Part shown: piece after piece, positions 3,437 to 64,000 of the stretch
Numbering within the stretch: position 1 is the stretch's first letter
How the letters are laid out: each line of letters starts with the position of its first letter
Origin: Nemertoderma westbladi
Taxonomy: Eukaryota; Animalia; Xenacoelomorpha
Reading direction: 5' to 3'
NCBI GenBank assembly: GCA_032718475.1
Contig: JAUCBJ010000012.1
Coordinates: 5,673-69,672, forward strand
Length of the DNA stretch: 64,000 nt
The notes under the pieces: model-generated
What the model was told of the DNA's origin: nothing
Seen by the model: the letters and a program-made list of their open reading frames with translations, nothing else
The model's database searches: none
Program-made: the position numbers and the translations under genes

Positions 3437-3497
3437 GTTAGAATATTTAAATAGTACAATATATCAGTCGTGTTGTGTCAGTTGTAGATTCCAATCA

Positions 3498-7650: not shown

Positions 7651-7852
7651 TTATCACTACTCACACTTACCACTACCGTATTACTCGGCCAAAATTACGA
7701 ACCATCAAGTGGGCCACATCCCTACCCATGGCATCTAGTCTCGAGGGATGGTTTATTTAATTATTTATTTTTATCTTGACAGCAATTTAATTTAATTTGT
7801 AACTTAAAAATGAAATATTCGACTCACTAAACCATGTTTTTTTTATTTGTAG

Positions 7853-19650: not shown

Positions 19651-19915
19651 ATGGTCGACACAGATTAGAAAAATAATGATCTTAAGATGTCTGTTAGGTC
19701 TGTTCCTGAGTTCCAGTTCGCTGAATCCCGCTGTGAGTTTTATCTAAACGAACGGTGAACGGGGCGGTGAGTTGGAGACAAATACAGTACCGGTACATCC
19801 AGTGACACAGTCGGTGAATAGGTATATAAGCTGATTAGGGTATCACAATATTAGTATCTCTACAAATACATATATATTGGTTGGATTTGTTTACAATTAT
19901 ATATCTATAGTAACG

Positions 19916-20419
19916 ATGAATGATTATTCCTATGGACCTCCGCCTAAGGACGCAGACGATATGGTGTCGTTGAAGGTGGACAACCTCACCTACAGGACAA
20001 CGCCGGACGACCTGCGTCGCGCATTCCAGAAATACGGGGAAGTCGGAGACGTTTATATTCCGCGCGACCGGAGCACTCGGGACAGTCGCGGCTTCGCGTT
20101 CGTTCGCTACTACAGTCGGCGAGACGCGGACGACGCGATGGACGGCTTGGACGGGTCGCTGATGGACGGAAGGGATATTCGGGTTTCCTTGGCGCGACAT
20201 CCGCGCCCCTTGGAGCCGCGGGGCTCGTACGGAAGGGGCGGGGGCGGCCGGTACGACGGAGGGGGGCGTTCCGGTGGCGACTACAGGTCCGGTCCGCCAC
20301 GGAGTCGGTACGGGGGCGGTAGGAGCTACCGCTCACGCTCGCGAACCCCGCCACGTCGGGACAGACGGCGCAGTCGCAGCTACAGTCGCTCGCGGTCGCT
20401 CAGTCGGTCTCCCAGGTAA
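19916..20419 (+). CDS. SRSF2: Serine/arginine-rich splicing factor 2 (SC35)
   Basis: [49 protein letters not shown] followed by a Gly-rich linker and RS domain; ATG at 19916; AATAAA at ~20546; the end cag|gtaaag could instead be a splice donor. Confidence 0.92.
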
Positions 20420-21571: not shown

Positions 21572-23560
21572 TTATTGGTCACCAGGCGTTCTCCAAGAGT
21601 TGCAGTTGTTACACAACCGCGGACAGACACATAATCCAGGATGAGTCAGTGTCAGACCCACTCCCGCTGACATGTACGTATCCGATATCCGAGTTGGCTC
21701 TATTATAGGAGGTATAACCCTGTAAACAATAACGGTATAACCCTGTACGCAATAACGATATAACCCTGTAAACAATAACGGCATAACCCTGTAAACAATA
21801 ACGATATAACCCTGAAAACAATAACGATATAACCCTGAAAACAATAACGCATAACCCTGTAAACAATAACGGCATAACCCTGTAAACAATAACGATATAA
21901 CCCTGAAAACAATAACGATATAACCCTGAAAACAATAACGATATAACCCTGAAAACAATAACGCATAACCCTGTAAACAATAACGATATAACCCTGTACA
22001 CAATAACGATATAACCCTGAAAAGAATAACGCATAACCCTGTAAACAATAACGGTATATATATAACCCTGTACACAATAACGCATAACCCTGTAAACAAT
22101 ATCGATATAACCCTGAAAACAATAACGCATAACCATGTAAACAATACCGATATAACCCTGAAAACAATAACGATATAACCCTGAAAACAATAACGCATAA
22201 CCCTGTAAACAATAACGATATAACCCTGTACACAATAACGATATAACCCTGAAAAGAATAACGCATAACCCTGTAAACAATAACGGTATATATAACCCTG
22301 TACACAATAACGCATAACCCTGTTATCAATAACGATATAACCCTGAAAACAATAACGCATAACCCTGTAAACAATAACGGTATATATAACCCTGTACACA
22401 ATAACGCATAACCCTGTAAACAATATCGATATAACCCTGAAAACAATAACGCATAACCATGTAAACAATACCGATATAACCCTGTAACAATAACGATATA
22501 ACCCTGAAAACAATAACGATAACCCTTTAAACAATAACGATATAACCCTGTAGACATTAACGATATAACCCTTTAAACAATAACGATATAACCCTGTAAA
22601 CAATAACACATAACCCTGTAAACAATAACGCATAACCCTGTAAACAAAAACGCATCACCATATAAACAATAACGCATAACTCTGTAAACAATAACTCGTA
22701 ACCATGTAAAGAATAACGGTATACCCTGTAAACAATAACGCATAACCCTGTAAACAATAACGATATAACCCTGTAAACAATAACGCATAACCCTGTAAAC
22801 AATAACGCATAACCATATAAACAATAACGGATAACTCTGTAAACAGTAACGCATAACCATGTAAAGAATAACGGTATACCATGTAAACAATTACGATATC
22901 ACACTGTAAACAATAACGATATAACACTGTAAACAATAACGATTTATCCCTGTAAACAATAACGCATAATCCTGTACAAACAACAACAGTATAACCCTGT
23001 AAAAAATAACGCATAACCCTGTAAAAAATAACGATATCACACTGTAAACAATAACGATATAACACTGTAAACAAAAACGATTTATCCCTGTAAACAATAA
23101 CGCATAATCCTGTACAAACAACAACAGTATAACCCTGTAAAAAATATCGCATAACCCTGTAAACAATAACGATATAACCCTTTAGACAATAACGATATAA
23201 CCCTGTAAACAATAACGATATAACACTGACTGTAAACAATAACGATTTAACCATGTAAACAATACCGGTATAACCCTGTGTAAACTATAACGGTATAACA
23301 GATATTTAGATTTAATAGATATAAAACGAATTTGCTCAAATCTACCTGGAAACACCCTCAGATTGATATGTAGGGTTATTGTAGTTCACACTAGGTATTT
23401 CTAGAACCGACACATTTGTCGGATGTTGAGTCCCTAACTTCTCTCGACATGTTGGACACGGTGGCATTGAGGCTCCTGTATGTATCGTTTGCGACGGCCT
23501 TGGGCATTCTCGGCACAAGTGACCCGTTCCAGGTTGAACAATAAATGAGCTCAACTCATT
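21572..23560 (-). CDS. Putative last two exons (23560-23346, 21719-21572) of an unidentified Cys-rich, possibly RING-like gene
   Basis: ttttag|AATGAG acceptor, CAG|gtag donor, GHLCREC...CPTCR motif; joins in frame to VIPPIIEP...CVCPRLCNNC*; a further candidate exon at ~24506-24686. Confidence 0.35.
21712..23300. repeat. Minisatellite, ~22-24-bp unit ATAACCCTG(T/A)AAACAATAACG(C/AT)
   Basis: Direct inspection, about 65-70 copies. Confidence 0.95.
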
Positions 23561-31284: not shown

Positions 31285-32329
31285 ATTTTATACCTGTTCT
31301 ATGTATTTGCTAAGGAAAATAATTTACAGATTAAATGGTTGTAATTGGAAGCAGGACATGGTAAAGAATCTCCATATGGTATTGGCGGAACCCTCAAGCG
31401 CACTTTAGATGCAGTGATGGGGATGGGTGTACACCAGACACCATCTTTTGATGACATTGTGAATTGTTTTAAGACTCGAACAGTGACAGAAATACTGTAC
31501 TGAAGATGATGTTAAACAACAAAAGTTGAAGTTGACACCCGAACCTAGGCCTATTAAAGGCATTGTAAAGGCACATGAGGTTTTGCTTGATCCCATCGTA
31601 ATGGATTTATCGTGCCTCTGGCAAGATAAGCTCCTAAAACGGCTTTGTATCTCTAAAGTTTCCAAAAAGTGCTTTCACTTTTTTACTGTTTTGGTTTCTC
31701 GGTATCAAGACAGAACTAGCTCGCAATAATACACGGTCCTTCAATGACTTGTTGTTTACGGAGATCCACAGCCATTTTCTAGATAGTGCAAAACACCGTG
31801 ATTTCTGTTCTTTCCAGGTGTTATATTGCTTCCTTCTGGTATAAAAATAGTGTACTCTACGTAACACCATAGAAAAACCTCTTCGAAGAGGAGAAACCGG
31901 GTGAAGAGTGCTTTGGGTCCGTTAGGATCCAAAGTATAGCTTCGAAAAATAATACAATTCAAATAATTGTAACCAAAATACACAGAAAATACAGTATTTT
32001 AGTCGTTTCGTTATGCTAAAATACTCTGAAAAATATACAAAAAAGTCCATTGAAAAAAGTCTGATTGTAGAAAAGTCTATTTTGTGGAAAATAGTCATGA
32101 AAAGTCGTAATAAACTTGGTGCAGCTTCACGCTATTGGAACTTGGCATTAGTACAAACACCAGGTACCCGTCTGGGTCCAAACGGCGGTGGGACCGATTG
32201 GATTGAAATGGTTGGCTACTGAATTGATATTTTTGATATAAATTGATTGAATTGATATTTATTTCCTTACTTCTTTATCCTACGACTTAGGATTGACCTC
32301 TAAGTCTGTTCGCGCTTTCAGACCGTTAT

Positions 32330-33509
32330 TGTTCGCGCTTTCAGACCTTTAGCAGTTTAACCTGCCAAATTTGGATGTCTTTTAGATGATAGATAGTCTT
32401 TAGCCTATGACAAGTATTTGATACACTACATTAGCCGAATCCAGTCTATGCGCGATCATTCACCCGCTGGATATACCCGGGAGACTGGATTCGGAAGCCT
32501 AACCGTATTGCGGGGTAGGCCTACTGTATTATTCGACTGATCGTAATATATATAATCTCTGACAAATATTCTTCACTTTCGGGAAATATTAACAGTTCCT
32601 TTAGGACGTGGCGCTTTAAATATATAAACAGAGTTATGACTTAAACTAGACACAACGGGATGGCTATAGATTCACGTATATGGCGCATTCTTTAGGAGAT
32701 GCTTCGTTATCAATCACGATCATACACAATACTGCACAATGCTGCACCCTAATCTGCCGACCTTCACTAATTTTAGTCACATATAAGGAGAACAACAGAC
32801 AATACGTGTAGGGCCTATAAAATAGCATTAGATTCACTTCAAACCACTTAATGTAAGTCGCAATCGTTATATGTATCCGGTCTCTCTAACCTTTAGTATA
32901 TCAAGAAGATTGGGGTGTCTGATTGTTTATCAGTATTCCAAATATAATATTCCATCAACAAATATAATGAATAAACGACAGCAAAAGCAGTAATGTTAAG
33001 GTATGTTATGAGTGAGTGAGTAAGTTAAGTTATGTTATGTATGTATGATCAGTGAGTTTGATATGATAACGGATATACGTTCTATAATTAAGCCTACTAA
33101 TGTTGAACTAAAGACTGAAACACGGAGGTTCCACGCCGGTGTTGTAGGCTGTGGACAAAATCACAATACTGACTCACTTCCCTAGTTTCTATATACAATC
33201 TCCAACACAGAGGCAAAAAACGCTCTGATTGGTCGACCGAACAAAGAGAGAACAAAGAACAAAGAGATGTTCCACGTGGCAATATCAGCTGTTAGCCGTC
33301 GTCATGGTATCTACACTGTTTCAAGAGGATCCGGCGTATTGCGTCATAGAATTGCTAATCATGTCCGCTAAAGTACACATACAGAAGAAATGGCTTTTAT
33401 GTCCTCTAAAACAACAGTACAGTAAGGACACGGCCTTTTATGCCTGCTAAACCAACTACAGAGTACTTTACGGGGAAAATAACCGGCTAATTACGCAAAA
33501 GCCTTTACA
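32330..33509 (-). repeat. 3' LTR of copy A (1180 bp), with a further 23-bp terminal duplication at 32307-32329
   Basis: Near-identical to 47210-48389; preceded on the element strand by the purine-rich PPT GGGAGCGG (33510-33517). Confidence 0.95.
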
Positions 33510-33587
33510 CCGCTCCCAGAAAATGGGATTTAAGTCTATAAAATATAACAAATCACAGTTTCTAAAATATAAAAATACTCTAAACAG

Positions 33588-36500
33588 TTAGTCTTTCTTA
33601 CGCGGACGGCGTTTACGCAGTTTTTTGAGGCTAGCAAGAGTCCTTTTCTCTTTGGGGCGAGCCACTTTACTAGGAGGGCTGTAGCTCCTGGGTGAAGGGT
33701 GCAATACAATTGCATCAGAAGGTTTAGGATTACGATCGGTGTATCCTCCGGTCGAGGTACCTGGTTGATCGGTATCAACTTCAGTGGAGCGAGGTCTAAT
33801 GGCTTTTAGGGCGCGTCTTAGGACAGCAGCTCCTACGGGTCCTTGACGGGTCGTCTGGACAATGGCGGTAGGCGGACCGTGAGTGGTAAAAAACTTCCTT
33901 GGTTTAATGGTTCTTTCCAGCTCGCGTTCTCGGGCTCGATATTTGTAGGGCCGTCGAGATACTTCCTGTAACTCAGGGTGCGAGTTGATAAATAAATCGC
34001 CATACTCAGGGTCTTGACGGATGAAATTGATCAAATGATATGAAGTAATATCGTTAGGATTGACGTTCCTAAGATATTTTCGAACAAATTTGGTGGAAAT
34101 ACACTCACCAACACGCTTCATTAGTTCGTAACTCGGTGTGCGTGTTTTTTGTTCCACAGACGCGAATAAATAAGGATGGAACGCGTAAACTCCCTCGTAA
34201 GAGCGTCCAGGGTAGTAGCGATGGCGGGCCTCACAATGTAAATCCGCGTTCGCTTCCCAAGCTCGGATGTAGCGCAGGGTAATCATCTCATCTACGCTTT
34301 CTAAATCGCGGTTAAAGGGGCAATTATAACTGGCATGTCCTTTAAGTTGACAGTGGTGACATTGGGTCATAAATTGGGGGCAGACTGCAAAAATATGCGA
34401 GTTATTAAGTCTGCAATACGCACAATAGATCTCCATCATCGGTTGTTCGTGGAAATAGGAGCAGGGTACGTCTGAGTCCATAGGGGTGAAATGGTCTCTC
34501 GATGCGCATAATCGACAACGTTTTCGAGAAATATAGTTGGCGTGTCGATAATCGTATGCGGTGAGACATTGTGGACCTTGATACCACTCCAAGACGTAAT
34601 CGTTATCGCTGCTCCGGGGCGCTGTAGGCTGGATCGCTTCAGATTCTAAGCATATTGGTTCGTCTTCCAATTGCATAGCTGAGGTAGGTGCGGCTGTCTC
34701 CGCAAGCGGACCCACGGTCTGAATTTGAATATTCTATTGTCTGAATTTCCACGACAGAATAACCTGTGGGTATTCGAGGTCTTTGTATAACAGATGAATG
34801 TAAGTTCTGTATACAAACGTCCTGAAAGAGAGCAAATCCCGCGCTGTTTAGCTTCTCTGCAGCTGAGTCTCTTAGGCTGAGTTTGGTCAGAGCGCGGTCC
34901 TTGAACTGACTATCAACGTTACGGAACGGAGTCAGAAAGCGCCTGAAACATTCGAAGCGGATTAATTTATTGTGTTCATCTAACTTGGCGAGTTTGGTTC
35001 CAAGTATTAAGGGATGGGCGCGTATGGTACGACTGCACACATCGGCTAGCCAACCAGCAAGTGCTGCGTTTTCAAAGATCGTGTATATAGCTAAGGAGGG
35101 ACAAAGTGGAACACTCATAAAGCTATACACGGCGCCAGGTGCGGTCAATGGTCCATCAAAGTATAAACGAGAATATTGATCTCCATATACTTGTTGGTAA
35201 TTTATAGGATTTCCAACCTTGAAATTCCATCCATATTCTTGAAAGGCAAGATGTCCGATGGAGGTTCGTTGTACTTTGGTAATGCCGCTGGGTGTATTGG
35301 CATACATAGTGCGGAAGAAACCTCGGCCTTCTGCCCAGGGAGTAATCAGCTGAGTATCCACGAAAGGGTATGGAATGTTTTCCATATTCCGAAAGTCGTT
35401 TTGTAGATCTCCATAAACAGCCGAGCCGATTTTAAGGATTCTTTCGTTAAACAACATCTCGAGCACAGGTTGGGGTAACATCGATCCATCGATACCCATG
35501 GCCGGTTTGCGCTCGGTGTCGGCGACGTAACGCTGCGCGAGCTCGAATTGTCCATGTCGGAGTCTCTTTTGTGTCTCAGTAAGAGTTTCAAAAGAATAAT
35601 CAATCACATCGGAACACGCTCGAGTAAATACGTGGGTAGAACCAGCGAGTCCTCGTATGTGTATCATCCGCGTAGTTCCCAGTTCTCCAACCGGAATGCT
35701 ACCTTCGTTATCGTAAGTGACAACTCCATACATCTCGATAACGTTAAGAGTTTCGTTCCACTCTTTAGTGGCGTTTTCGAGGGTCATTCCCACAGGATGC
35801 CACAAGGTAGCGCATTCGCTAGCATTAGGTAGGTCTCTATACTTTAAATATTGTGTGGTATATGTTTCCACATCTCCATATCGTTGTATTCTTTCCTCCT
35901 CGAATAACACGTCAAGATTCCAGTGTACTAAACGAGTTTTGATGAATCCATCAAGATTATACGGAGGTATTGTTTCTTTCTCTATTCTGGAAACATTATA
36001 TGGTTTTCGAAATGAGTTTACTTTAACTAACTGATCCAGATGTTTCTGCAGTTGTTCGAGTTCGACAAGATCGAGAGGATTTATTAGTGGTAGAAACCTC
36101 AGACTATGTGTAGGATCTTCCGGTTTTACCATGTAATATTGCGTTAGATTGACGTAATAAGGGTGATCTTTGCCTGTCTTTCTTTTTTGATAACTCTTCA
36201 ATTATCCTTCTAAGTGCCAAAATGGGCTCCATGGTCCCACGACCTTTACGGAACCCATTTCAGGGTTCCCCCAGGGTTCCGTAAAGGTCGTGGGACCATG
36301 GAGCCCATTTTGGCACTTAGAAGGATAATTGAAGAGTTATCAAAAAAGAAAGACAGGCATCTGGCTGTTATCTTTGTTGACTTCTTCAAGGCCTTTGATT
36401 CAGTCTCTCGCTCACGTATGTTCAGCATACTTTCATTATATGGGATTCCTGATGAAATTATTGCAGCAATCAGATCAGTATACGATGGTTCGACAACATT

Positions 36501-39198
36501 TGTGTCTACTGTTGACGGTGACACAGAACCATTTGAAGTGTTATGGGGCGTCCTCCAAGGAGACACACTTGCACCATTCTTGTTCATTATTGTGGTTGAC
36601 TATGTTCTACGCATGTCCTTAGATCATCATAATGATGATGGGGTGATGATAACTCCACCTACTGGCTCCAGAAGTCGAGGAAATCCTGCCAAGTACCTAA
36701 CTGATCTAGACTTTGCTGATGACTAAGGAGTACTCTCAGAATCATTAGAGGGAGCCCAGCGGCTCCTCAGCTCATTAGAACATGCTGCTTCTAGTGTTGG
36801 TCTTTTTATTAACTCCAGAAAGACCAAAATTCTGACAGTTAACTTTGAAAGTCCTCAACAAGTCTCTGATCGGATGAGCATAAGCTCAAAGGATGGTATG
36901 CTTGAGCATGTGGACGACTTCTGTTACCTGGGATCATGGATCCGGAAGTCAGGTGAGGACCTTCGAATACGTAAGGGAAAGGCATGGGCAGCCTTGAATA
37001 GGCTTTCCAGGATTTGGAAGTCACCTAGAATTAATCGGAAACTTAAGGTCCGATTATTTAGAGCAGCAGTAGTTCCAGTACTCCTCTACGGGAGTCCATG
37101 CTGGGCTCTAACTGCTGAGGACACCAAATCTCTGGATGGCACATTCACAAGAATGCTACGCCGGGTACATTGTGTCAAGTACAATGCACACATCTCCAAC
37201 CAGACACTATATAACATTGGAGGTGTCTCATTGGTTCCCCCAAGCTTGACACTAGAACAAAATCGTCTCCGCTTTGCAGGACATTGCTTTCGCCGTGAGG
37301 ACCAGCCAGTGCATAATCTTGTACTTTGGCAGCCTCATGGAGTGAATAAGCATGGTGGACAGCCCATGACTTTCTTGAGACGCATCTTAAAGGACACTGG
37401 CCTTAAAGATGCGGATGATCTAGCAAATGTCATGGGTGATAGGGAGTTGTGGCGGCGCAATTTTGTTGACAAGCCGGCACAGCATTCTTAAAAATGCAGC
37501 TGCAATGCAGCATGCCGATCCTAGTCCTAGTTGATCCCATAAAACGAGTCCGGTAAAGGTCTAGCGCGTATGTTTACATCGTGTACCATGCGACGGACAA
37601 GATCCGCTCTATTGTCCGGAGGTTGAACGAGTGTACCATCTACACGAGCGGCTTCGATGGGTGGACGTTGCAACATGGGAGCGTCGGCGATAAGCTCTCT
37701 AGATCTTAGGTTGATATCAACCGGTTGGGGTTGTATCGTCGCAAAGAGTTTGTCTCCGAAATGGGGAACCATCGAGGGATGAAGGATGGTTTTAGAGTAG
37801 AGATCCGTCATAAGGATTTGAGCATCGGGTTGAGCTAAAGCTGCTTCTTCTCTCTCATCTAGTTCTATATGTCTCTCCTCGAGCTGATTTTCCTCCGCTT
37901 GTTGTTGTAGACGCTCATCTAGGAACTCTTGTAAAGAGTAGGTTCGTCCACGTTCGATGTCCTCTTAGAGATTTTGTATTTCTCTATCGAACTGGGGTAA
38001 AGCTAATTCCTTCACCGCTTGGACTTGTTGTTGCAATTTACGTTTCTCCAAACAATCGTAAGTTCCTTTTCCGATTTTCTGCCGAATAGCATCTAACGCG
38101 TTTCGTACGACGCTCTCTTCGACTTCTGTAACGGGTTGTATCGAGGTGAAGCCGGGACGGTTGTGTGGGTTAAATGGCGATTAGGTAGGGTTGGCGAATA
38201 TCTAGTGAGCCTACTACCGGAGTACCACCGATCAACTGTTCGGGTAACACTAGATCTTTGAACAGTGAGTACAGTTCAGGAGGATCCGTGATACTATTAG
38301 GATCAAGAGTCTGAGGTCTAACTGAGGAATGAGGAGGTCTGACCGAGTATTCCGGAACTCTGATCATTGGTTTGTTCAAGGATCGTTTGAGTCGAGCGAC
38401 CATAGGGGATACGTCGAACAGGTTTCGCTCGAAACTCCCATAAGTATATCGTGTAAAACTGTGTTTAGCGCAACGTCTCCGCGGATGTTTATGTCTTTCC
38501 GTTTGCTGATTGGGTCTAGGGCATTCGTCGCAGTAATACCAAAGACGCACGTCCTGCAGGGGAAACGCGGGTGATCGTTCTCCAGTTTTACAATATTCCT
38601 CCATCTGTTCGAAGCTATCTGGGACGACAGGTAGCGGTCGATCGGCGGTAAGATACATCATAGTGAAATAGAGTCGTTTGAGTTCTATCATAGGATCATG
38701 ATGTATACCTTGTGGATATCGAGTTTCGAGATTTTGTTGACTGGCAATAATGAGATATGTCTCTCTCAGGAATTCCAGATAATCGTTGAAGTCGCTGCGT
38801 TTATCCGGCTCTTCAACGTCTTCCCTTTCGAGTTTGTTTCGAATAGAGTTCTCGTGTTCTATTCTCGGTTTATCGTTCCGACTCCGCTGGGTATGATATT
38901 TAAATAAAACCATTTCCCTTTCGGTGTCTACATCGTCCGTATCGTGTAAATCGATAGGATGGCCAGTAGTTAAGAAGTCCATATACGTACCATTACGATG
39001 CGTATAGCGAGCGGTGAACTTTCTATAATCCAATTCACGCGTAAGTTGCTCCTGGGACATTGGCGGTTCGATATAACGACCATCATCCTCCGTAGTAGTT
39101 GGACCAGCGTCTCCGCGTATCAAGCTATCGACAAACGCTTGTAAAGGTAGAGTATATCGCTCCCTAATACCGAGATCATCTTCTATCAACTCAGTCAT
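33588..39198 (-). pseudogene. Accessory ORF of copy A (~1400 codons once the LINE is removed): unknown N-terminus, coiled region, DEDDy 3'-5' exonuclease (~35060-35760), CCHC zinc fingers (~34310-34525), basic C-terminal tail; frameshifted and LINE-interrupted
   Basis: ExoI VVTYDNEG; LP..VLEMLFNERILKIGSAVYGDL (ExoII); FVDTQL; SIGHLA; PL..SLAIYTIFE (ExoIII, D to E); CRLC..H..C, CAYC...H...CP, CHHCQLKGHASYNC; KKLRKRRPRKK. Confidence 0.75.
36169..37531 (+). mobile_element. 5'-truncated non-LTR retrotransposon (RTE-group-like RT) inserted antisense in the accessory ORF
   Basis: GFRKGR, FVDFFKAFDSV, GVLQGDTLAPFLF, DFADD then one in-frame stop, thumb YLGSWI, LLYGS..W; (CCTAGT)2 tail; possible TSD TGATC at 36164-36168 and 37532-37536. 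Confidence 0.9.
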
Positions 39199-40019
39199 AT
39201 CTGCTATGAGTTTATCAATATTATAATGAGTTTATATATTAGGCTAGCGGGCGTCGCTGCCTACCCCTCTTTTGCCCCCGGACAGTGCAAGATCCTCAGC
39301 GCCGATGTACCGTCGTCGCTGTGCTTTCGCCAACGATGTAGCTACACAACGACAACGATAACCGGCACAAGTCACTCCACTGTCCGTCCCAAAGGCTTAG
39401 ATGTACTTTAGGTTCTTTCTGGAGAGTTAGGGTTACTTTCACAATTGCGACTAGCTACTGTAAACACACTTTAGCAGTAACATTCACCTATGAACGCACA
39501 AATTCAACACAACTGCCATAAACTGTACACATTCGGGCCATTTGTCCGTTAGTCAGTACCTTCCAGAATGTCACTTTATTTATTATGTATCCTTGGATAC
39601 TAGCAGTGCGCTATTTATTCCCTATGCTATTCAATGGGGCAAGCCTTCTATTGTTCTTTTAACTCACTTCTAATTCTAGCGTGGTTGTTGCCATGGTGAC
39701 ATTATGGAAAGCTAGCGGTAGAATTAGGGTAATTCTCATGCATACAGATCTGGGATGCTATTTAATAGTAATTCTTTAATTGTCAATATCCTCTCTATAT
39801 ATGATTTTATGAATTTTATCGGCTATTGACTATATATTGGAGATTCTCGCACACAAATACACTTAATAGAGTGAATCTCCGCTCCCATGATCTATTAATT
39901 AATGGAATTTTGGGAATGTTATAAATTGTATAAAATGACAATTTATTAAATTCATTGAAATATCTGAATTTAAATTTATTCCCGTAAATTTTATTATTTA
40001 ATGTTAAATAGACACAATT

Positions 40020-40290
40020 TTATTCCAGAACGTGTCTGGGGACTGGGACCCTTGATTCGATTCTAGGAATTTTGTCTTTTTAAGAGTATCGGTAAGTGCT
40101 ACGATATCTTAATCGACTAGAATTTTAAAGGATCTGATATTTGACAGATTTTGTAAATATTAATAATTAATATTTAGGATGGGCACCAGTTTATTCCAGA
40201 ACTTGTCTGGGGACGTTAACCACTGATTCTAGAATTTTGTCTTTCAAGTATATCGGTGGGTGCCACGATATCTTAATCGACTAGAATTAC
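40020..40290. repeat. Two ~100-125-bp repeats in the pol-to-accessory-ORF spacer (copy B ~61290-61550)
   Basis: tttattccagaac.tgtctgggga...aattttgtcttt...cgatatcttaatcgactagaatt occurs twice in both copies. Confidence 0.75.
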
Positions 40291-40832
40291 AGCTGGTCAA
40301 AGGGTTTAACAGATTTATTTGCGTTGTACGCTACTGTTAAAGGGACATCACGCTACTATATGTATTATCTAATATACGGTATGAGAGCAATATCGCACGA
40401 AGCAATGTCAGTGTGAAGAGGCAAGTCGTTTCCAAGGTCTACCCGGAGCTTGGTTTAGCCGAGACACGAGGATCTGAACTTTGCATTCCTAATACTCTGC
40501 CTACCAATAATACTTGAATATAGTAGTGGCTTTATTGTACTTTAATAAGTACGGACATTTCATCTTACTGTAGTTACGTATTCGTAATGTAATACGGGCA
40601 GCAAGGAAAGAGAAAAAGAATTGTTTCTCGCCGTCGCACTAAATATATAATATAAGTAATTACGTAATAAACGAGAATATATTGCACTAATCTACTAAAT
40701 AATCGCTAAAATAACATTCTACTAAATAAAATTAAAGAAAACGATTATAATAAAATTACATAATAATACATACATAAATATAAAATAATAAGAATATAAA
40801 ATAATATGGTCACACACCCACTCCATATGCTA

Positions 40833-41270
40833 CTAAGCTGGGGAGTCCCTAGATGTTTGTTGGATTAGGGAGGTGGTCGTGGGAAGAGTATCTTGCCTCC
40901 CATAGTTTCCGGAGAGTTCTCTGTCTCTTTCCAGTAAACATAAGCGACCAACTGGGCGATTGAGCTGCTGCGTCTCGAAGACAATTCCCGGTTTCTTGAA
41001 GTTACGTCGCATGACGACGAGTTCTACCGATCGCACCAAACCGTCATCCGAGATGTGAGTCTCGATGATACGACCTGTCTGCCACCGCTTACGTGGAAGA
41101 TCTACATCCAGAATAAGAACCATGTCTCCAGCGCTGACGTTTTCTTGCTGCGCAAACCACTTAGTTCGAAGTTGTAGCGTGGGCAGATAATGTTTTTCGA
41201 AATGGTCAGCGAAACGACGGGATAACAACTGCATGAGTTGCCAAGTTTGCCGGCAGTATTCGTCTCCGTC
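40833..41270 (-). pseudogene. C-terminal remnant of BEL pol (post-integrase, DUF5641-like), copy A
   Basis: F...F.KHYLPTLQLRTKW...GDMVLI.D..LPR.RW.TGRIIETH...DGLVRSVEL...RPV.RLCLL. Confidence 0.85.
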
Positions 41271-41279
41271 TGTGATTTC

Positions 41280-44200
41280 CGATTGTGGTAGTTAGGGTGA
41301 GGTTGCTGTCTGTGTCTTTTTCATACGTAAGTGCTCGATACACTGCGGTATTTATCATGTAACAGGATTCACCTTCGTCGGAGAATTCATCTCTATAGAA
41401 TCCTTCCATCTCAGAGCTTTGGTCAGTGTCGTTCACATCACTGAATTGGACATGTAGTTCGGAATCACTTACCTGACTCTGGCTGTTTCGCTCAAATTCA
41501 GTGTGCAACAAGATATGATGTTTCGCACCGCACTTTGCACACCTTGTGTCGGAGTAACAGGTTCGCCGTTGGTGTCCTTGTCTGAGGCAATTATAACACA
41601 ACCGCTTATCCCACATGACTTCCCGTCTCTCCGCTAATGATTTCTTCAGGAATTCATCACACGTATTCAAATGGTGGGTCCCGTCACATAGCGCACATTT
41701 CGGTTTGATGTTACTTACCTTATTTTGAATAACAGTGTGCACACTCTTTCTTTCTTCGGGCTTTCTCACCTGAATTCTCTTGGGAGACGTAGGAGGAGTT
41801 TTTCTTACCTGTTCTCTCCTGTCATTGGTTCGAGACTTGAATTTACTTACCTGTTCTTTAGGCGTTTTATTGACATAATAAGATCTTTCAGTGTCTTTCC
41901 CGCTATCCTCTCCTTGAGAAGTCTGGCTTTCGCCGTCGTCTGTATAACACACTGGTGTTACCTTTCTCCTAGAGATGGGTTTCTCACTTACCTTGTTTTC
42001 CGGTGTCTTCTCTCTGGACTGCTTTATGAGCTGTAATTTCACTTCGCCATCCAAGAATGACATGAGATCAGCCATGGTAGGGTCTCGTTGTTGTTGTTCC
42101 ATCATATATAACACTTTCTTGTCCCAGCGTGTACCTACTCCACCCTTCGGTAAAGTAGAAGCCACTGCTCTAATAACCATAGCACTCTGATACTCATGAG
42201 ACTTACCTAGCCAATCTAATTGTCTGCAGATCTCCTGAATCTCATCGGAAAACTCTATAATCCCGCTGCTAATAAACTTTCGGGGCGCTACCAACTTTGC
42301 ATACAAATACCCAGCTATGTTATTCCTATTACCATACCTGATGTTTAGTGTATCCCAAACTTGTCTTAATCCGTCTGGATGTCCAATAAACTTTAACGCC
42401 ATTAACTTGGGAGATCCTTCCAAGCACTCGATGAGGAATCTAAGTTTCTCTCCATTAGATAGCACAGAGTTCTGTATGTTATCTTTATAATATTCATTAA
42501 AAGGTAACCATTTCATCTCATCTCCATTGAACTTCACTATCTCTCCCACCTTTACCGCTTGGCGGGCTTCGGTTCTAGCCATTTGACGCGTAAAACTTTC
42601 TTGGGCCATCGTGTTATTTAATATCGAGTTATCGGTATATAAATTTCTTGGGTTATGATCAGGTCTATAGGGAATATCACTATCAACAGGTCTATAATTA
42701 CCCTTAATAGGGTTTACTATAGGAGTTTCTACTTCACTAGCAGTATAGATGCGTGTAGGCTCCACACCTTGCGCATGAAATACTTCAGACCTAACGGGTT
42801 GACATATTGTTACAGAGGGTGGTGATATACCCTTTTGTAAATTTACTAATTTCTCGCGTTCTAGCGCGATACTTTGCTGCACTTCTTGCAACTCTAACCT
42901 ACTTTCCTTTACGGTTCCCTTTAACTGTTGAACAGTCCCTTCTAACTCTCGGACCTGTAGGGAGGAGCGCACTCGATTCTCCTTCATCTCTCCGAGGAGA
43001 ATGTCCATCCCCCGCTGTCTCTCGTCTACCCAATCAACCGCCGAAGCAGGATCCGCCAACGTCGTAGCGGGCGGACGAGGGACTACAGGCGATATATCCT
43101 TTATATTTCGCTCGGAGTCCAGGACCGACACTGCTTCAGGGGCTGTTCCTCTAGGCACAGATAATTTGGTGCTGTGTAAAGGGAATTTAAAGGTGGGTTC
43201 TGGGAGCACAGGTGTCTCTATCACCGAAGGGGTGATTTCAAGAACAGGCCTAATTATTTCAGGCTCATCTACTATAGTAGGGAGTCTTTCTAGTTTAATT
43301 ATTTGGTCTGTGGGTTCTGTACTACCTAAATCTGTGTTAGTTAATTGCCTTCTAACAGCTGGGGGCAAATCAGGCAATTTGTGACGGTAAGATGTTCTTC
43401 TACGCCTACTTAGACGAGATCTATTTCCTCTGCCTTCAGGATCGGTGGTATCGCCTTCCTCAGATGATGTATAACCTTGTCTCTTGGGAGTAGATCTATT
43501 CATCATCTGCATATTACTAGCTGTTAACTGTTTACTGAAGTTGTCTTGCTTCTCTTGAAGATTTTCCAACTCTAGTTGGGTTGTCTCTTCAGATGCCCTC
43601 CGTTCTGCTTCTGCCACTGCTATTTTTCTTTCCGCTTCGGCCGCTGCCGCTTTTCTTGCTGCTTCTACTGCTGCAGCTGCCGCTTTTGCTTCTGCCGCTG
43701 CCGCTTTTGCCTCTGCTGCTGCCTCTGCCGCTTTTCTATCCGCTTCTGCCGCTGCCACTGCCGCTGCTGCTGTCTTTCTATCTTCTATACGTTTTTTCTT
43801 TACTTGTTCTTCTTGAACCTTAGCGATGCGGATGCTTTCATTGAATTTAGCTTGGTTCGCAGCTAACCTATCCACATCGATTGCGTCCAACACACGCTGG
43901 GCTCCTTCACTATTAGGGCTAAGCCCCTCTAGTCTTCTCCTCAACTCTTCATCTCCTACAAAACGTTGATAGTCCGACAGATAGATGTCAATGGCATCCC
44001 TCTTATGCGGCTTCTCTGCCGTCGCTTCACTTTCCACTTGGGAAAAAGTAGCGTCTGTTGATTCTCCATGGGTTGAGCGCTCATCCAGTTGGGCTTTCCA
44101 CTGAGTCGTTCCTTGCACCTGGAGGCTCACCTGTTGAAACCAAGTCTTTACGGCAACTTGCAACGACGTGTCTTGTCTTCTTTTAGAAGCCTCCTCAAAG

Positions 44201-44949
44201 GCCGATAAGATTAGCCTGATTCGTAGAATTCTTTCTCTAACTTGATAAAGCAGCTGTCCCTGCTCTTGAGGTCCTTGGGGTTGTTGAAACAGTTGTTTTT
44301 CTAATCACTCCATGGAGCTGAAGAATCCCTGTACGTATCCGGCTGCGGACCTCTTCCACACAGCTGGATCGATGGTTTCCTTGGTTACTCCCATCCTGTG
44401 TATATCTTCCCAGGCAGCTTCTGATAAATCAAACGGGAGTCCGGGTCCGGGGAAGTTCCATTGCGACTCGACAATAGACTTCAGTTCTTCCCTTGTGTAT
44501 CCCTCATAACTATCTTTAGTCGATCGCTTACTTCTCGCCCAATCGATCTGGTGTTCTTCCACCGCAATCAATAACCTAGTGAGTATGGCTGCAGGAAGGA
44601 TGAGAAGGGGATCCGAATAAACCGCATCCGTCATCTTTGCTCCGCGCTCGGGTGTCAGCTCTACAGTATCCTCACTACTGGAGCTGTCGGGCCGTTGAGA
44701 AATAAGTTCTTGGCTCGCGGGTTGTTGTTGTTCCGCTGCTTCTTGGTCCCGCTTGACCTGAGCTCTAGTGCCTATGACAGACCTACGGTGTTGGACCAGC
44801 CTAGGTTCTGATATTACTACTGGGGAAATGATCTTTCTTACAGTAGGAGGTGAGTTGAACTTCGGTCTAACACGTTCCACACTCCTGTCTGGGTCACATA
44901 AGGTTGTATCTAGGAGACTGTCTGACAGGTTTTGCTTTGTGTCAGACAT
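41280..44949 (-). pseudogene. BEL/Pao gag, copy A, with one premature TGA at 44305-44307
   Basis: KFNGDEMKWLPF...LSNGEKLRFL...L.G (DUF1759-like); CALCDGTHHLNTC, CYNCLRQGHQRRTC, CAKCGAKHHILLH; copy B has CGA where A has TGA. Confidence 0.9.
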
Positions 44950-47209
44950 GTTGGTTTGTACAGTTGAATGCCTACTGCTATATTACAGTTAAAGCAAGTT
45001 TAGTAATTCAGTATCAACTGTTAGCCTAGTAATTAATTACCGATACTGCTACTCAGTGTAGCGTGATATATATATAATATATTAGAATACCGGTATGCTT
45101 ATAGTATATATATAAGTATTATTACAGACTAGGTTTGTCACAGGATACCGGTATGTAATTCCAGCACAAATATATATAAATATATAATAGGCCTATCGTG
45201 AATACCGGTATGCAGCTTACACTTATAGTACATATAAGTATAATTATTAACTAGAATTAATTACAGAATACCGGTATGATTTCAGCCTAAATTTATATAA
45301 CTAAATATAATAAGCCTATCGTGAATACCGGTATGTCAATTATTTTAGAATAATTGAATTTCTGAATTTTTAGGGGTTACTTGGTTACTTTAACTTACTT
45401 TATTACCGTTATTTAAGCAGTAGTCCAACTGATATTTAGACCTAATTGTTGTATGGCAGGCCTACTATTTATAAATCGTTTGATTTGATTTATAATATAT
45501 ATATACCCGTTTAATGGGTTTTGTCAATATTTGAAATAAATGTTATTATTTCTGGGGGGAGTCACTACACAGAAGCTGTGCGCTCTCAGTGGAATGCTAC
45601 TTGTTGGACACTAAAACAAATAATTCTAATTTACCTAAGTTACTTAATACTACAAATTACATACAATTCGGGGTGAGATTACAATCTCTAAATAAACACA
45701 AAAAATTACACGTACGAATTTTTAGGGTAATTTTACAAGAAGTCTACAAACCAGCCTAACAAAGGGTTAGAAATCTGGTTATTACAACGGACAGAGTACT
45801 ACGGTATTTGAAAATAATAAGTAGTAGTAAATATACTGCGTTGTCCAGATAGAAAAATACCACCGTCTGACGACTTATAGCCGTATCGCTATAAGTACTA
45901 CGTTATGTATCACGGAGTGTTCCTACCTAGAAGTTAATTACCGCGGTCTACCAGAACCAACGTGCCTATTAACCACTTTACAACACAAATATACTGCCTA
46001 CACACTAATTGCCTTCGGAAAGCACTGTACACTAAACCCTAAATTAGGTACAAGTACTTATACAACAAATAATTAGTAGTTAAAATACTTGAACAGCTAA
46101 AAGAACCACGGTATCTGCCGGAGTGACCAAAGCACAAAATCTCCAGTCTTTACCTACGCCGAGCAGCCCTGATGTAGTACCGGGGTTAGTTTAACTATAA
46201 CAGTATGTATAACAAGCACAATTACTGTAGGAATAAACTTGGGGAATGAATGTTGCAAATAATCGCATAAACTCTGAATAATAAATATTACGCTACGCGT
46301 ACAGACTACTCAAACAAAATGCAGACCAAATACTGACAGACTACTATCAAGCCTAAACAAACTACGGTATATGCAGACTCCGAAATGGTTAGTTAGTATG
46401 CGTTCTAACCTAGTAGTACGACTTATTCTTTCAGAGGGGGTTTACCTCACAGCACTGGAAGCCCCTACATTCCCAACTGGCACTTTATCGGACATACACT
46501 CTACACACACCGAAATTTCCTCAGACCTAACAACAGCCAGACAACTATCCAGCCTACAAATTATCTAAATAAGAATTATACGCTACCTGTATAGACTACA
46601 CAAACAGAGTACAGACCAAACGCTGGCAGACTACTATCAAGCCTAAATAAACTACAGTATATGCAGACTCCGAAATGATTAGTTAGTATGCGTTCTAACC
46701 TAGTAGTACGACTTATTCTTTCAAAGGGGGTTTACCTCACAGCACTTGAAGCCCCTACGTTCCTAACTAGCACTTTATCGGACAGATGCTCTACACACAC
46801 TGCAATCTGTTCAGACTTAACAACAGTTTGACAACAGTCTAGCCTACAAATTGTCTGTACAATCTGAGCAGGCTTACACGCCTTCTGCTCAATATTGGCC
46901 TACAAATAAATAAAACTTGACAGAAATAAGTAAAATCTCAATAAAAAACCAGGGCAGGGCGGCCGTCCCTGATTAATTATTAAGGCCTACCGGTATATAA
47001 TTATCAAAATCGAATAATACTGCTGTACCTGTACTGCTGTAGGTACCGGTCCGGGTGGTTAGGTAGTCAGGCCTACTGGGTACCGGTTGCCGGTACTTCA
47101 GCTTTATTGCCTACTGCAATACAGAAGCAATATCCGTTATTGTTCTTACCAGAACAATATTAAACTGTATTTATTGCCTACCCTGCAATCCGAACTTGAT
47201 ATCCGTTAT

Positions 47210-48389
47210 TGTTCGCGCTTTCAGACCTTTAGCAGTTTAACCTGCCAAATTTGGATGTCTTTTAGATGATAGATAGTCTTTAGCCTATGACAAGTATTTG
47301 ATACACTACATTAGCCGAATCCAGTCTATGCGCGATCATTCACCCGCTGGATATACCCGGGAGACTGGATTCGGAAGCCTAACCGTATTGCGGGGTAGGC
47401 CTACTGTATTATTCGACTGATCGTAATATATATAATCTCTGACAAATATTATTCACTTTCGGGAAATATTAACAGTTCCTTTAGGACGTGGCGCTTTAAA
47501 AATATAAACAGAGTTATGACTTAAACTAGACACAACGGGATGGCTATAGATTCACGTATATGGCGCATTCTTTAGGAGATGCTTCGTTATCAATCACGAT
47601 CATACACAATACTGCACAATGCTGCACACTAATCTGCCGACCTTCACTAATTTTAGTCACATATAAGGAGAACAACAGACAATACGTGTAGGGCCTATAA
47701 AATAGCATTAGATTCACTTCAAACCACTTAATGTAAGTCGCAATCGTTATATGTATCCGGTCTCTCTAACCTTTACTATATCAAGAAGATTGGGGTGTCT
47801 GATTGTTTATCAGTATTCCAAATATAATATTCCATCAACAAATATAATGAATAACCGACAGCAAAAGCAGTAATGTTAAGGTATGTTATGAGTGAGTGAG
47901 TAAGTTAAGTTATGTTATGTATGTATGATCAGTGAGTTTGATATGATAACGGATATACGTTCTATAATTAAGCCTACTAATGTTGAACTAAAGACTGAAA
48001 CACGGAGGTTCCACGCCGGTGTTGTAGGCTGTGGACAAAATCACAATACTGACTCACTTCCCTAGTTTCTATATACAATCTCCAACACAGAGGCAAAAAA
48101 CGCTCTGATTGGTCGACCGAACAAAGAGAGAACAAAGAACAAAGAGATGTTCCACGTGGCAATATCAGCTGTTAGCCGTCGTCATGGTATCTACACTGTT
48201 TCAAGAGGATCCGGCGTATTGAGTCATAGAATTGCTAATCATGTCCGCTAAAGTACACATACAGAAGAAATGGCTTTTATGTCCTCTAAAACAACAGTGC
48301 AGTAAGGACACGGCCTTTTATGCCTGCTAAACCAACTACAGAGTACTTTACGGGGAAAATAACCGGCTAATTACGCAAAAGCATTTACA
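47210..48389 (-). repeat. 5' LTR of copy A
   Basis: TGTAAATGC...GCGCGAACA; CCAAT, TATATAGAAA and initiator-like TCAGT (48052-48048) on the element strand. Confidence 0.95.
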
Positions 48390-48394
48390 AAGTC

Positions 48395-50671: not shown

Positions 50672-51840
50672 TGTAAAAGCTTTTGCGGAATTAGCTGGTT
50701 ATTTTCCCCGCAAAGTACTCTGTAGTTGGTTTAACGGACATAAAAAGCCGTTTCCTTACTGTACCGGTGTTTTAGAGAACATAAAAAGCCATTTCTTCTG
50801 TATGTGTACTTTAGCGGACATAACTAGCAATTTTATGTCGCAATACGCTAAAATCCTCTTGACACAGTGTAGTTACTATGATGACGGCTAACAGCTGATC
50901 TGTACACGTGGAGCTTTTCCTTTGTTCTCTGTTCTTTCTTTGTTCGGTCGACCAATCAGAGCGTTTTTTGACTCTGTGTTGGAGATTGTATACAGAAACT
51001 CATGCAATTGAGTCAGTTGGTGTATTTTGTCCACAGCCAGAAGACCGGCTTTGGAATCTCTGTGTTTTCAGGCTTTAGCAAAACATTAGTAGGCTTGATC
51101 ATAGAACGTATAACCGTTATCTAAACAATTCATACCTAATCAAACAAAACAATCAAAACACCGCATTTTTACTGCTATTTACTGTCGGTTATTAATTATA
51201 TCAGTTGATGGAATATTATTATATTGGGATAATATCGATCAATAATCAGAAACCCCAATCTTCTTGATATACTGAAGGTTAGAGAGACTGGTTACATATA
51301 ACAATTGCGACTTACATTATATTGGTTTTGGAGTGAATCTAATGCTATTTCATAGGCACTACATGAGTCAGTGGTTGTTCTCTTTATATGTGACTAAAAT
51401 TAGTGAAGGTCGGCAGATCGGTGTGCAGCATTGTGCGGTAGTGTGCATGATTGTGACTGATAACGAAGCATCTCCTAAAGAATGCGCTTTATACATGAAT
51501 CCATAGCCATCCCGTTGTGTCTAGTGTAAGTCATAACTCTGTTTACATATTTAGAGCGCCATGTCCTAAAGGAACTGTTAATATTTCCCAAAAGTGAATA
51601 ATATTGGTCAGAGATTATATATTAACAATCAGTCGAATAATACAGTAGGCCTACACCGCAATAAGGTCAAGGCTTCCGAATCCAGTCTCCCGGGTATATG
51701 CAGCGGGTGAATGGTCGCGCATAGACTGGCTTCGGCTAATGTAGTGTATCAAATACTCGTCATAGGCTAAAGTCGATTTATAATCTAGAAGACATCTAAA
51801 TTTGGCAGGTTAAACTGCTAAAGGTCTGAAAGCGCGAACA
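50672..51840 (+). repeat. 5' LTR of copy B (1169 bp)
   Basis: Homologous to the copy A LTRs; CCAAT ~50952, TATA-like ~50989, TCAGTT 51013-51018. Confidence 0.93.
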
Positions 51841-51851
51841 ATAACGGTTAT
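51841..51851 (+). promoter_or_regulatory. Non-tRNA primer-binding site ATAACGGTTAT, complementary to LTR 51110-51120
   Basis: Immediately follows the LTR end; exact reverse complement of ATAACCGTTAT; no TGG tRNA-type PBS. Confidence 0.7.
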
Positions 51852-52934
51852 TGCTTCTGTATTGCAGTAGGCAATAAAGCTGAAGTACCGGTCAACCGGT
51901 ACCCAGTAGGCCTGACTACCTAACCACCCGGACCGGTACTTACAGCAGTACAGGTACAGCAGTATTATTCGATTTTGATAATTATATACCGGTAGGCCTT
52001 AATAATTAATCAGGGACTGCAGCCCTGGTTTTTTATTGGGATTTTACTTATTTCTGTCAGTTTTATTTATTTGTAGCCCAATATTGAGCAGAAGACGTGT
52101 AAGCCTGCCCAGATTGTACAGATAATTTGTAGGCTGGACTGTTGTCTGACTGTTGTTAAGTCTGAAGAGATTGCGGTGTGTGTAGAGTGTATGTCCGATA
52201 AAGTACTAGTTAGGAAAGTAGGGGCTTCCAGTGCTGTGAGGTAAATCCCCTCGAAAGAATAAGTCGTACTACTCGGTTAGAACGCATACTAACTAACCAT
52301 TTCGGAGTCTGCATATACTGTAGTTTGTTTAGGCTTGATAGTAGTCTACCAGCGTTTTGTCTGTATTTTGTATGTGTAGTCTGTACGGGTAGTGTAATAT
52401 TTCTTATTTAGATAATTTGTAGGCTGGATTGTTGTCTGGCTGTTGTTAGGTCTGAAGAGATTGCAGTGTGTGTAGAGTGTATGTCCGATAAAGTGCCAGT
52501 TAGGAACGTAGGGGCTTCCAGTGCTGTGAGGTAAACCCCCTCGAAATAATAAGTCGTACTACTCGGTTAGAACGCATACTAACTAACCATTTCGGAGTCT
52601 GGATATACCATAGTTTGTTTAGGCTTGATAGTAGTCTGTCAGCATTTGGTCTGCATTTTGTTTGAGTAGTCTGTACGCGTAGCGTAATATTTATTATTCA
52701 GAGTTTATGCGATTATTCGCAACATTCATATCCCCAAGTTTATTCCTACAGTAATTGTGCTTGTTATATATACCGTTATAGTTAAATTAACCCCGGTACT
52801 ACATCAGGGCTGCTTGGCGTAGGTAAAGACTGGTGATTTTGTGCCCCGGTCACTCCAGCAGATGCCGTGGTTCTTTTAGCTGTACAAGTATTTCTAACTG
52901 CTAGTTATTTGTTGTATAAGTACTTGTACCTAAT

Positions 52935-54640
52935 CCCAGTTAAACATGAGTATGTGTTTCATATATGGTTGCCATAAATAATTCGACATGTGATACATAT
53001 ATGTAAATGTTACAGTGTTGTCAAATGTGATCCATATGTGGAATGTTCACATGTGATACACATATGTTTTTTATGTGACAAGTGCGACAAAAAGAGTAAA
53101 AATTTAAACTGAGACCGACCAATCACTGGTGTGGGTCTGCATTTCCTATAGAGAGGTGGGGCGGGGGGGGGGGGGGGGGGTAGCCTACCTCAGTACCTTA
53201 TCCTATCCAATCCCTACACCCTATCCTACGGCCCTACACCTACCCTATACATTTAGAGAAGGAAGCATCGGAGTATATATGAAAATATTTAATCCATAGT
53301 GATATGAGAGTATCCTTAATAGATTTTGGTTATGATCCGTAAATTCGTATTCTATTAGTTAGATTTAATTAAGTTATCTAATTTCCAGCTATAATAGATT
53401 ATTCATTTTGATAAATCTTCGAAAATTAATTAATTCTAAGATCATATAATTGCTCATATGATATTTTATATCTAATTTTAAGACATCTTTTCCATACAAC
53501 ATATATATACCACATATGAAACATATGTTCAATTTTTTAACGGGATAAGAACTGCAATAGGCCTGCCTACCTTACGGATGGTATAGTGCATGTATGTTAT
53601 CTGTCTATGTCTGTACCCCTTACTGATACTTAGCAGCGCAGATGACAATGCACAACCACAACCTGACAAGTGAAAACCACCACACAGCCATACATATGTT
53701 TGTCTAATTCTGTTAATACAGCACTGTACAATGCACATGCACAGCACAATGTGCATAGTGCAAGGCAGAAAGCAGGCAAGTCACACACTGCATCACTGAA
53801 CAATTGAGTGGACTATGACTGTATGATAAGCGGTAGGCTTATGCAACGCATTATGCTGTTATGGGTAAAATATAAAATAATTTGCGATTCACTAGCTAAA
53901 CTACAAGCGACACGACGTGGTTAAGAAGAAAGATTGCAGGATCAGACTATGAAATGCCTATCATTTTAAGAATGTGTCCCACCACCAGCCCTCAAATGCA
54001 ATAAACAAAACAATTGGACGATCGACTATGGTTACTTCAATTTAGTGTCCATACAGCCTTCACAGATCATTTAAACCTTATAGCAGGCCTATGTATTGAT
54101 TATACATTATATGGTTAAATAGCCGGTACTTTGAAAATACAGTATAACAAAAAATATAGATTCAACGTATTATACTGCTGATTAAAACGATATTTGTTCT
54201 TAATGCAAAAAGCTGAGTAGTGACATCAACAAATTCCGCATCCCCCCTCGCTATTCTTTTCTGTACATGTATTACTGTAAGGCCTGTATTACCATAAGGC
54301 AAACATGTGTGCAACATATAAAATCCATGAACTGGATTACACAATTACGAATTGAATAGTTTATGGATTTAAATTTAACTCGGAGTCTTGGCTATGGCTA
54401 TTTCACATATGCTCGACATATATTATTCACATGCGCATTCTCACACATTTATTTATGATAAATTCATATGTGCAACATATAAATACCATAAATGGCGATA
54501 CACACATTCTAAGTGTATGTATCACCGCATGCGTGACATGTATTATTCATACATGAGCATAAAAACCCAATTTCCAGACACACCTATTCCATACAACATA
54601 TATATACCACATATGAAACATAAGTTCATGTTTAACTGGG
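52935..54640. mobile_element. Non-autonomous CMC/EnSpm-like DNA transposon nested in the copy B leader
   Basis: TIR CCCAGTTAAACATGA / TCATGTTTAACTGGG; 2-bp TSD AT confirmed by the empty site ctaatttaggg in copies A and C; subterminal acatatg repeats. Confidence 0.85.
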
Positions 54641-63765: not shown

Positions 63766-63915
63766 CTGTTTAGAGTTATTTTTATATTTTAGAAACTGTG
63801 ATTTTTTATATTTTATAGAATTAAATCCCATTTTCAGGGAGCGGTGTAAAAGCTTTTGCGGAATTAGCTGGTTATTTTCCCCGCAAAGTACTCTGTAGTT
63901 GGTTTAACGGACATA

Positions 63916-64000
63916 CGGCCACCTGTAGCTGCATAGACCCTCTTACTAGGGCAAATCTGGTCCTGTAACTAGGACCCCCTTCGTTCTGGGATAAGGACGC
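63916..64000. mobile_element. Unidentified insertion in the copy B 3' LTR, runs off the window
   Basis: LTR identity stops abruptly after ggacata; GC-rich sequence with small hairpins follows. Confidence 0.5.

Follow-up and report, generated by a model that had tools for sequence, protein, structure and literature searches.

Exonucleases of the DEDDy type have been described as products of a third open reading frame (ORF3) in the rotifer elements Juno and Vesta and in Terminons, where DEED stands in place of DEDD (PMC5408684). The same paper presents such exonucleases as previously unreported in retrotransposons, proposes 3'-end processing as the role of ORF3, and gives its activity as unproven and its evolution as showing no significant departure from neutrality; the description is echoed in PMC5718144, PMC6431247 and PMC6338049. 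The larger question is whether animal transposons encode enzymes against small-RNA silencing, and the rotifer DEDDy ORFs have never been shown to be active or selected. Here we describe an accessory gene of a BEL/Pao long terminal repeat (LTR) retrotransposon from Nemertoderma westbladi (Xenacoelomorpha), found in a stretch of 64,000 nucleotides, hereafter the window (assembly GCA_032718475.1, contig JAUCBJ010000012.1, positions 5,673 to 69,672). The gene occupies window positions 33588-39198 on the minus strand. It belongs to a real, selected accessory gene family and is broken in the window copy.

Like rotifer ORF3, the window gene sits where env would be, and its predicted product is an RNase D-like exonuclease with no membrane segment, an altered acidic motif and an activity that is unproven. 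Compared by description only, the two differ in that the rotifer elements have a GPY/F-type integrase and a dUTPase (section 3.1), whereas the host here is BEL/Pao, and in that the rotifer motif reads DEED, whereas the window gene has a D-E-D-Y-E site, about 1400 codons, fused zinc knuckles and purifying selection. The rotifer precedent had been named in a preliminary description of this region, made from the sequence, and is indeed found in PMC5408684; a nematode precedent named with it was not shown by our literature searches, and the word "nematode" occurs 0 times in that paper. Our literature searches, which covered the texts of non-subscription papers, turned up no exonuclease ORF in a BEL/Pao element; the word "exonuclease" is missing from the main text of both PMC3118150 and PMC13524379, and PMC6681497, PMC11662393, PMC3315495 and PMC9094657 contributed no further precedent. 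Relative to published DEDDy ORFs, the BEL/Pao host, the size, the fused knuckles and the D-E-D-Y-E site are new here. The Caenorhabditis elegans BEL element Cer13 was reportedly once described with an exonuclease domain, which could remove the novelty of the BEL/Pao host. The window family adds to the rotifer cases another superfamily, purifying selection and an exonuclease-knuckle architecture that is conserved and whose cellular analogue has been characterised; its exonuclease domain is unbroken here and assayable as it stands.

The cellular analogue is TbRND of trypanosomes, in which an RNase D-type exonuclease is likewise followed by an array of CCHC knuckles, which increases both the binding and the cleavage of RNA (PMC7797062). 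In contrast to the window protein, TbRND is described there as a cellular mitochondrial enzyme for U-tailed guide RNAs, with four knuckles near the domain and a canonical site; the likeness may be a convergence. Among retroelements, the Belpaoviridae with env (PMC8742986 and PMC554778) share with our element the gag and protease motifs, DUF1759, DUF5641, LTRs of 1.2 kb, a polypurine tract and an ORF before the 3' LTR. Unlike them, the extra ORF here encodes no fusogen, and the element measures 16 kb without pol and has no TGG-type primer site.

A selected gene in the env position

The accessory region lies between the remnant of the integrase tail (40833) and the polypurine tract and 3' LTR (33519-33510 and 33509), that is, in the env position. 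The preliminary description had placed an ORF of about 1400 codons there, between pol and the 3' LTR. The place is right, except that pol itself is deleted, and the length is probably right for the family, whereas in the window copy the region is made up of five in-order coding pieces (338 + 71 + 143 + 476 + 381 = 1409 codons). They are interrupted by a frame change at about 38183, a stop at 37967-37965, a 1.36-kb LINE on the opposite strand and a frame change at about 34735, none of which had been mentioned. A second copy of the family was found by sequence comparison at 50672-64000 (plus strand), running past the window end; it retains gag, part of the protease and both ends of the accessory ORF, without the exonuclease and the knuckles.

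Piece A (38185-39198, minus strand, as are all pieces; 338 codons from the first ATG) encodes a domain of no recognised kind with a CxxC..H..C cluster at 38532. This Cys/His cluster (38532-38470, minus strand), the fourth in the ORF, is kept in the second copy and belongs to no recognised family. Piece B (37968-38180, 71 codons) follows the frame change, and piece C (37536-37964, 143 codons) is Glu/Gln-rich and coiled-coil-like by eye. Next comes the LINE, a 5'-truncated non-LTR retroelement (36171-37534, plus strand; RVT_1 E 1e-11, DUF6451) with a reverse transcriptase (RT) fragment that contains a stop. Piece D (34741-36168, 476 codons) carries the predicted exonuclease domain at about 35800-35010, placed by profile, feature and alignment searches, and piece E (33588-34733, 381 codons) carries three CCHC-type knuckles (34517-34320; zf-CCHC_3 E 2.5e-4) and a basic tail. 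The N-terminal 650 residues gave no match of note in Pfam, PHROG, NCBIfam or the PDB. By hydropathy, no 19-residue window in any of the five pieces exceeds a Kyte-Doolittle mean of 1.47, which agrees with the earlier claim that the protein has no membrane segment; the signal peptide and membrane anchor of an Env fusogen were not found either, the N-terminus being acidic.

The breaks look specific to this copy when it is compared with contigs of other copies. Additional sequence is present at the first frame change (38181-38183) both in the second copy and in contigs from runs X3 and X4. At the stop (37965-37967), which both window copies have and nearly all other copies lack, another letter accounts for 44388 of 44447 depth units in run X1, 41650 of 43325 in X3 and all of them in X4 and X5. 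Joints that skip the LINE, corresponding to empty sites, occur in all four runs, from four studies, with a length that keeps the frame. The weakest link is the break at about 34735, located at a short local duplication and spanned by one low-depth X5 contig with a frame-keeping length difference. From contigs of other copies lacking the breaks, it is quite probable that the family has one reading frame of about 1400 codons.

Two or more separate genes, for instance one for an N-terminal protein and one for an exonuclease-knuckle protein, would be compatible with the scarcity of bridging contigs, since none of those listed spans the whole accessory region and only the X5 contig bridges 34735. 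They would also fit the stop common to both window copies and the size of the only homolog, the protein P0001 discussed below, which has just 648 residues. We nevertheless consider them very unlikely, as another letter at the stop reaches 96-100% of contig depth in four of four runs, other copies lack the remaining breaks and stay in frame, and selection acts on both sides of the stop. The same depths led us to reject programmed read-through at 37965, which the shared stop had brought to mind. The stop is shared with the second copy (near 63500) despite many synonymous differences around it (dS above 1), a situation for which gene conversion or repeated mutation are possible explanations.

Selection was assessed by a codon comparison of the two window copies, over the stretches that the second copy shares (pieces A-C and the tail). 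The ratio of non-synonymous to synonymous substitution rates (dN/dS) was 0.17 and 0.22 in piece A (146 and 140 codons), 0.09 in piece B (68 codons), 0.04 in piece C (36 codons) and 0.29 in the last 53 codons of piece E. In the same comparison gag gave 0.23 and 0.15, and the other two frames of the compared stretches gave 0.49-3.96. Pooled differences between the copies amount to 96 at 295 synonymous sites versus 68 at 1034 non-synonymous sites. Contig variants between 37900 and 38220 point the same way, with 30 third-position changes among the 39 positions listed (P 3e-8; a further 22 rows lie outside the listing), and in the exonuclease piece 5 of the 5 variants listed fall at third positions (among 40 of 3325 rows listed). 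The accessory-gene pieces common to both copies are thus under purifying selection. Neutral evolution, which the preliminary description had named as the outcome that would speak against the gene, is not what the comparable pieces show.

A captured fragment of a host gene, carried as a neutral passenger, could easily be lost, and in other copies the exonuclease is indeed removed by at least four distinct joints, as it is from the second copy. Such a passenger would hardly have a dN/dS of 0.04-0.29, as low as that of gag (0.15-0.23), or the third-position bias described above. Where pieces A-C and the tail are concerned, this goes most of the way to refuting the idea, and we find it scarcely credible. 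Contig depth over the exonuclease is below that over gag, but it does not measure copy number.

Two further observations concern this region. The ratio of observed to expected CpG is 1.16-1.37 in the accessory pieces (33591-39198) versus 0.76 for gag, 0.70 for the DNA on either side and only 0.47 for the LINE, and the high value may reflect a foreign origin. At the 5' end of the LINE (36171-36359), 86 of 90 bases pair in an almost perfect fold-back, which indicates that the template was switched during insertion.

Predicted exonuclease domain and zinc knuckles

The motifs named in the preliminary description were all located on the minus strand, which is the sense strand of the element: YDNEG at 35715-35701, LKIGSAVYGDL at 35436-35404, FVDTQ at 35364-35350, IYTIFE at 35088-35071, CAYC at 34424, CHHC at 34361 and the basic tail at 33626-33591. 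In alignment A6, which includes RNase D and P0001, the ExoI D-x-E (35704-35712, minus strand), the ExoII Asp (35407-35409, minus strand; an invariant column in two alignments) and the Tyr of ExoIII (35071-35085, minus strand) fall on invariant RNase D columns, and a Glu falls on the last Asp, giving the site D-E-D-Y-E. The ExoII Asp of DEDDy enzymes is present, whereas their ExoIII Y-x3-D is replaced by Y-x3-E both in the window and in P0001, a variant site. Identity to RNase D is below 20% in A6, with two long insertions within the domain. The ExoII "K-x-G...D-L", the "DTQ" and an ExoIII of the form PL-x6-Y-x3-acid are shared with the EXD2/WRN/Mut-7 (Nibbler)/EXD1/Rrp6 group (DNA_pol_A_exo1).

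Several searches converge on this group. ESM Atlas features of piece D led to DNA_pol_A_exo1 clusters (0.93; 160-165 features in common), values that hint at a relative that is distant, and NCBIfam gave an RNase D match at E 0.006-0.012, far below the family cut-off. With a two-row profile of the window piece plus P0001, matches were obtained in 42 out of 201 proteobacterial genomes (E up to 0.1), and among 30 loci fetched from these matches 28 were RNase D-type, one was Pol I-like (by eye, from motifs) and one was a short frame with a stop. Against an RNase D profile the exonuclease piece scored 24.2 bits, the best of 1000 shuffles reaching 4.5; the profile consisted of 22 fetched loci whose rows had been picked by the window/P0001 profile, which makes this control lenient. 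An hhalign comparison gave 94%, over ExoII only. P0001 itself was aligned over all three motifs (53%). Word-indexed homolog searches returned nothing for piece D and only P0001 for profile A2, and a phage tblastn search gave rows at chance level only.

A single-sequence AlphaFold model reached a pLDDT of 32, and a model guided by A6 reached 51, with ExoI on a strand at pLDDT 70-79 and the ExoI and ExoII elements confident. The top structural matches of the guided model all belong to the DEDD family (best Foldseek E 1.4e-3, to EXD2; best Z 7.7, rmsd 3.6 over 105 aligned residues) and include Rrp6, Nibbler, RNase D, EXD1, Egalitarian and TbRND. Weak as they are individually, the convergent profile and feature matches to DnaQ-like domains, all below curated cut-offs, make an RNase D-type DEDDy fold very probable, as the preliminary description had proposed.

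P0001, an ENA singleton of 648 amino acids, was the only match among 1.84 billion representatives (E 3e-6, 29% identity). In one chain it has the same exonuclease, then three CCHC knuckles, and the same ExoIII Glu. Since order and Glu are shared, the architecture and the variant site are older than the window family, and the Glu is a family trait and not a lesion of the window copy. Because two proteins only 29% alike have both retained the Tyr and all four acidic positions, a working two-metal site is somewhat more probable than a dead one. The top Atlas neighbour of P0001 is a Euglenozoa cluster with PF01612 and PF00098 (0.86), which we take as a lead only.

The three CCHC clusters announced for piece E are there, with different degrees of conservation: CX2CX4HX9C is degenerate in its H-X9-C, CX2CX5HX4C is one residue longer than the canonical knuckle, and CX2CX4HX4C is exact. 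A knuckle profile that includes P0001 matched retroviral nucleocapsid and Air2 (E 4e-4), and by sequence the knuckles are of the nucleocapsid/Air2 type, that is, tandem CCHC. A nanos-like spacing had also been suggested for them. The nanos pattern is C-X2-C-X12-H-X10-C-X7-C-X2-C-X7-H-X4-C; it occurs in none of the five pieces and Pfam zf-nanos gave no match at E up to 1 or 10, and nanos fingers were rejected.

Possible functions of the accessory protein

We give a probability of roughly 40% to the reading that this selected gene, lying in the env position, encodes a soluble exonuclease-knuckle protein of about 1400 residues that trims or destroys host silencing RNAs. An RNase D-type 3'-5' exonuclease would be joined to CCHC knuckles in one soluble protein; the knuckles would feed single-stranded RNA to the active site, by analogy with what was measured for TbRND; the protein would act in trans; and, as the least supported step, the exonuclease would trim or destroy the short host RNAs that silence the element. 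Action in trans is proposed because many copies have lost the exonuclease domain, a loss to be expected in non-autonomous copies if the product is trans-acting. An active, knuckle-assisted exoribonuclease is favoured because the acidic site is retained and because of the TbRND analogy. A more specific version seems unlikely to us, namely that a BEL/Pao lineage swapped its env for an active one-chain counterpart of Rrp6-Air2 or TbRND that destroys the precursors of PIWI-interacting RNAs (piRNAs) or small interfering RNAs, the D-E-D-Y-E proteins being a mobile family.

Several points weigh against an active anti-silencing enzyme. Mature piRNAs carry a 3' 2'-O-methyl group that blocks such enzymes, and an Asp-to-Glu change can cripple a metal site. 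The second copy has neither exonuclease nor knuckles, and so the dN/dS values exclude the exonuclease. Pfam gave 0 matches to the exonuclease, PHROG and PDB sequence searches gave none, and no single search passed a family cut-off. The 94% of hhalign covers the ExoII region only, and ExoII alone scores well; D-x-E is placed at ExoI by A6 and one further alignment, whereas A3 and A5 choose another register; and ExoIII has a low pLDDT in the guided model, whose DEDD matches are not independent evidence since RNase D rows steered it. Viral and metagenome contigs contained 0 loci matching piece D or P0001, and so provided no genomic context for P0001. As for the rotifer elements, no clear link between the ORF and copy number was seen by their authors (PMC5408684).

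The protein could instead be a weak or dead nuclease acting as an RNA-binding adaptor, as EXD1, Egalitarian and Maelstrom do, for export, transport or packaging of the element RNA. Replacement of the ExoIII Asp in both known members would agree with this, as would the two long insertions in the domain, the nucleocapsid-type knuckles accompanied by a coiled-coil-like piece and a basic tail, and the presence of EXD1 and Egalitarian among the fold matches of the guided model. Pseudo-nucleases, however, usually lose catalytic acids outright, whereas in the two distant proteins compared here the Tyr is intact and each of the four acidic positions still holds an acidic residue, for which reason we place the adaptor on the unlikely side.

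An active exonuclease might also serve the reverse transcription of the element itself, trimming the primer or the 3' ends of its RNA or cDNA. An 18-nucleotide primer-binding site for tRNA-Arg or tRNA-Gly would be expected of a BEL/Pao element. At the primer-binding position of our element (47190-47209, minus strand) there is no TGG start, and none follows the 5' LTR in the three window copies (47209-47150, 51855-51910 and about 1680-1620), so that a primer may need trimming; 3'-end processing is also what the rotifer authors propose (PMC5408684). As a rule, however, BEL/Pao elements replicate with no gene of this kind (PMC8742986), and the 1.6 kb that separate the ORF from pol mean that packaging into the particle is not assured. 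This role appears quite unlikely, and we favour the exonuclease directed at host silencing RNAs.

The host element and its surroundings

Self-comparison of the window and boundary checks delimit a minus-strand BEL/Pao LTR element at 32307-48389, which is a young, pol-deleted copy. Its two LTRs of 1180 bp have TG...CA ends and 8 mismatches in 1180 positions; the 5' LTR lies at 47210-48389 (minus strand), and the 3' LTR at 32330-33509, followed by a 23-bp terminal duplication at 32307-32329 (together 32307-33509, minus strand, by sequence checks). A 5-bp target-site duplication is identical on the 5' side (48390-48394) and the 3' side (32302-32306), and a polypurine tract is read from the sequence at 33510-33519 (minus strand). 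The LTRs differ (32323-33509 vs 47203-48389) by transversions in 7 of 8 cases, 5 of them C/A, an unusual spectrum for which damage or sequencing error is possible.

The gag gene (41206-44982, minus strand; DUF1759 E 8e-11) has the triple Cys-His box of BEL/Pao, ends in the pol deletion and contains a premature stop at 44304, a position at which the second copy reads through. The deletion removed protease, RT, RNase H and the core of the integrase and left a C-terminal integrase remnant (DUF5641, E 2.8e-21; 40833-41291, minus strand), in which a loose contig ends at 41288. A spacer of 1.6 kb, AT-richer (GC 0.36), extends from there to the accessory ORF (39199-40832, minus strand). The LLDSG protease motif survives in the second copy; since both copies lack RT and the integrase core, neither is autonomous. 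Triple Cys-His gag, LLDSG protease, DUF1759 and DUF5641 are BEL/Pao hallmarks (motif definitions in PMC554778), and the family shows the gag, protease and DUF5641 motifs together with the LTR ends, target-site duplication and polypurine tract expected of that group. The stated size of BEL/Pao is 4.2-10 kb (PMC8742986); with 16 kb even without pol, the element is above it, and BEL/Pao elements thus reach well past the stated range.

Around the primer-binding position, a second occurrence of the junction between LTR end and leader lies some 60 bases further downstream, and the end of the 3' LTR contains a duplicate of 7 leader bases. The 5' part of a third family copy lies at 1-2539, and a 290-bp tandem repeat in the leader is common to all three copies. 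No Rfam match was found within the element and no tRNA gene within the window. Outside the family copies, an intronless GC-rich gene at about 19880-20419 (plus strand) encodes an SR protein (RRM_1 E 6e-20 and an RS tail, SRSF2-like by eye), possibly as a retrocopy; such a gene is in keeping with an animal host. Satellite arrays with units of 33-34 bp and 22-23 bp are located at 3400-7700 and 21600-23300; roughly 14 bases of the 23-bp unit also occur at the LTR-end/leader junction, maybe by chance.

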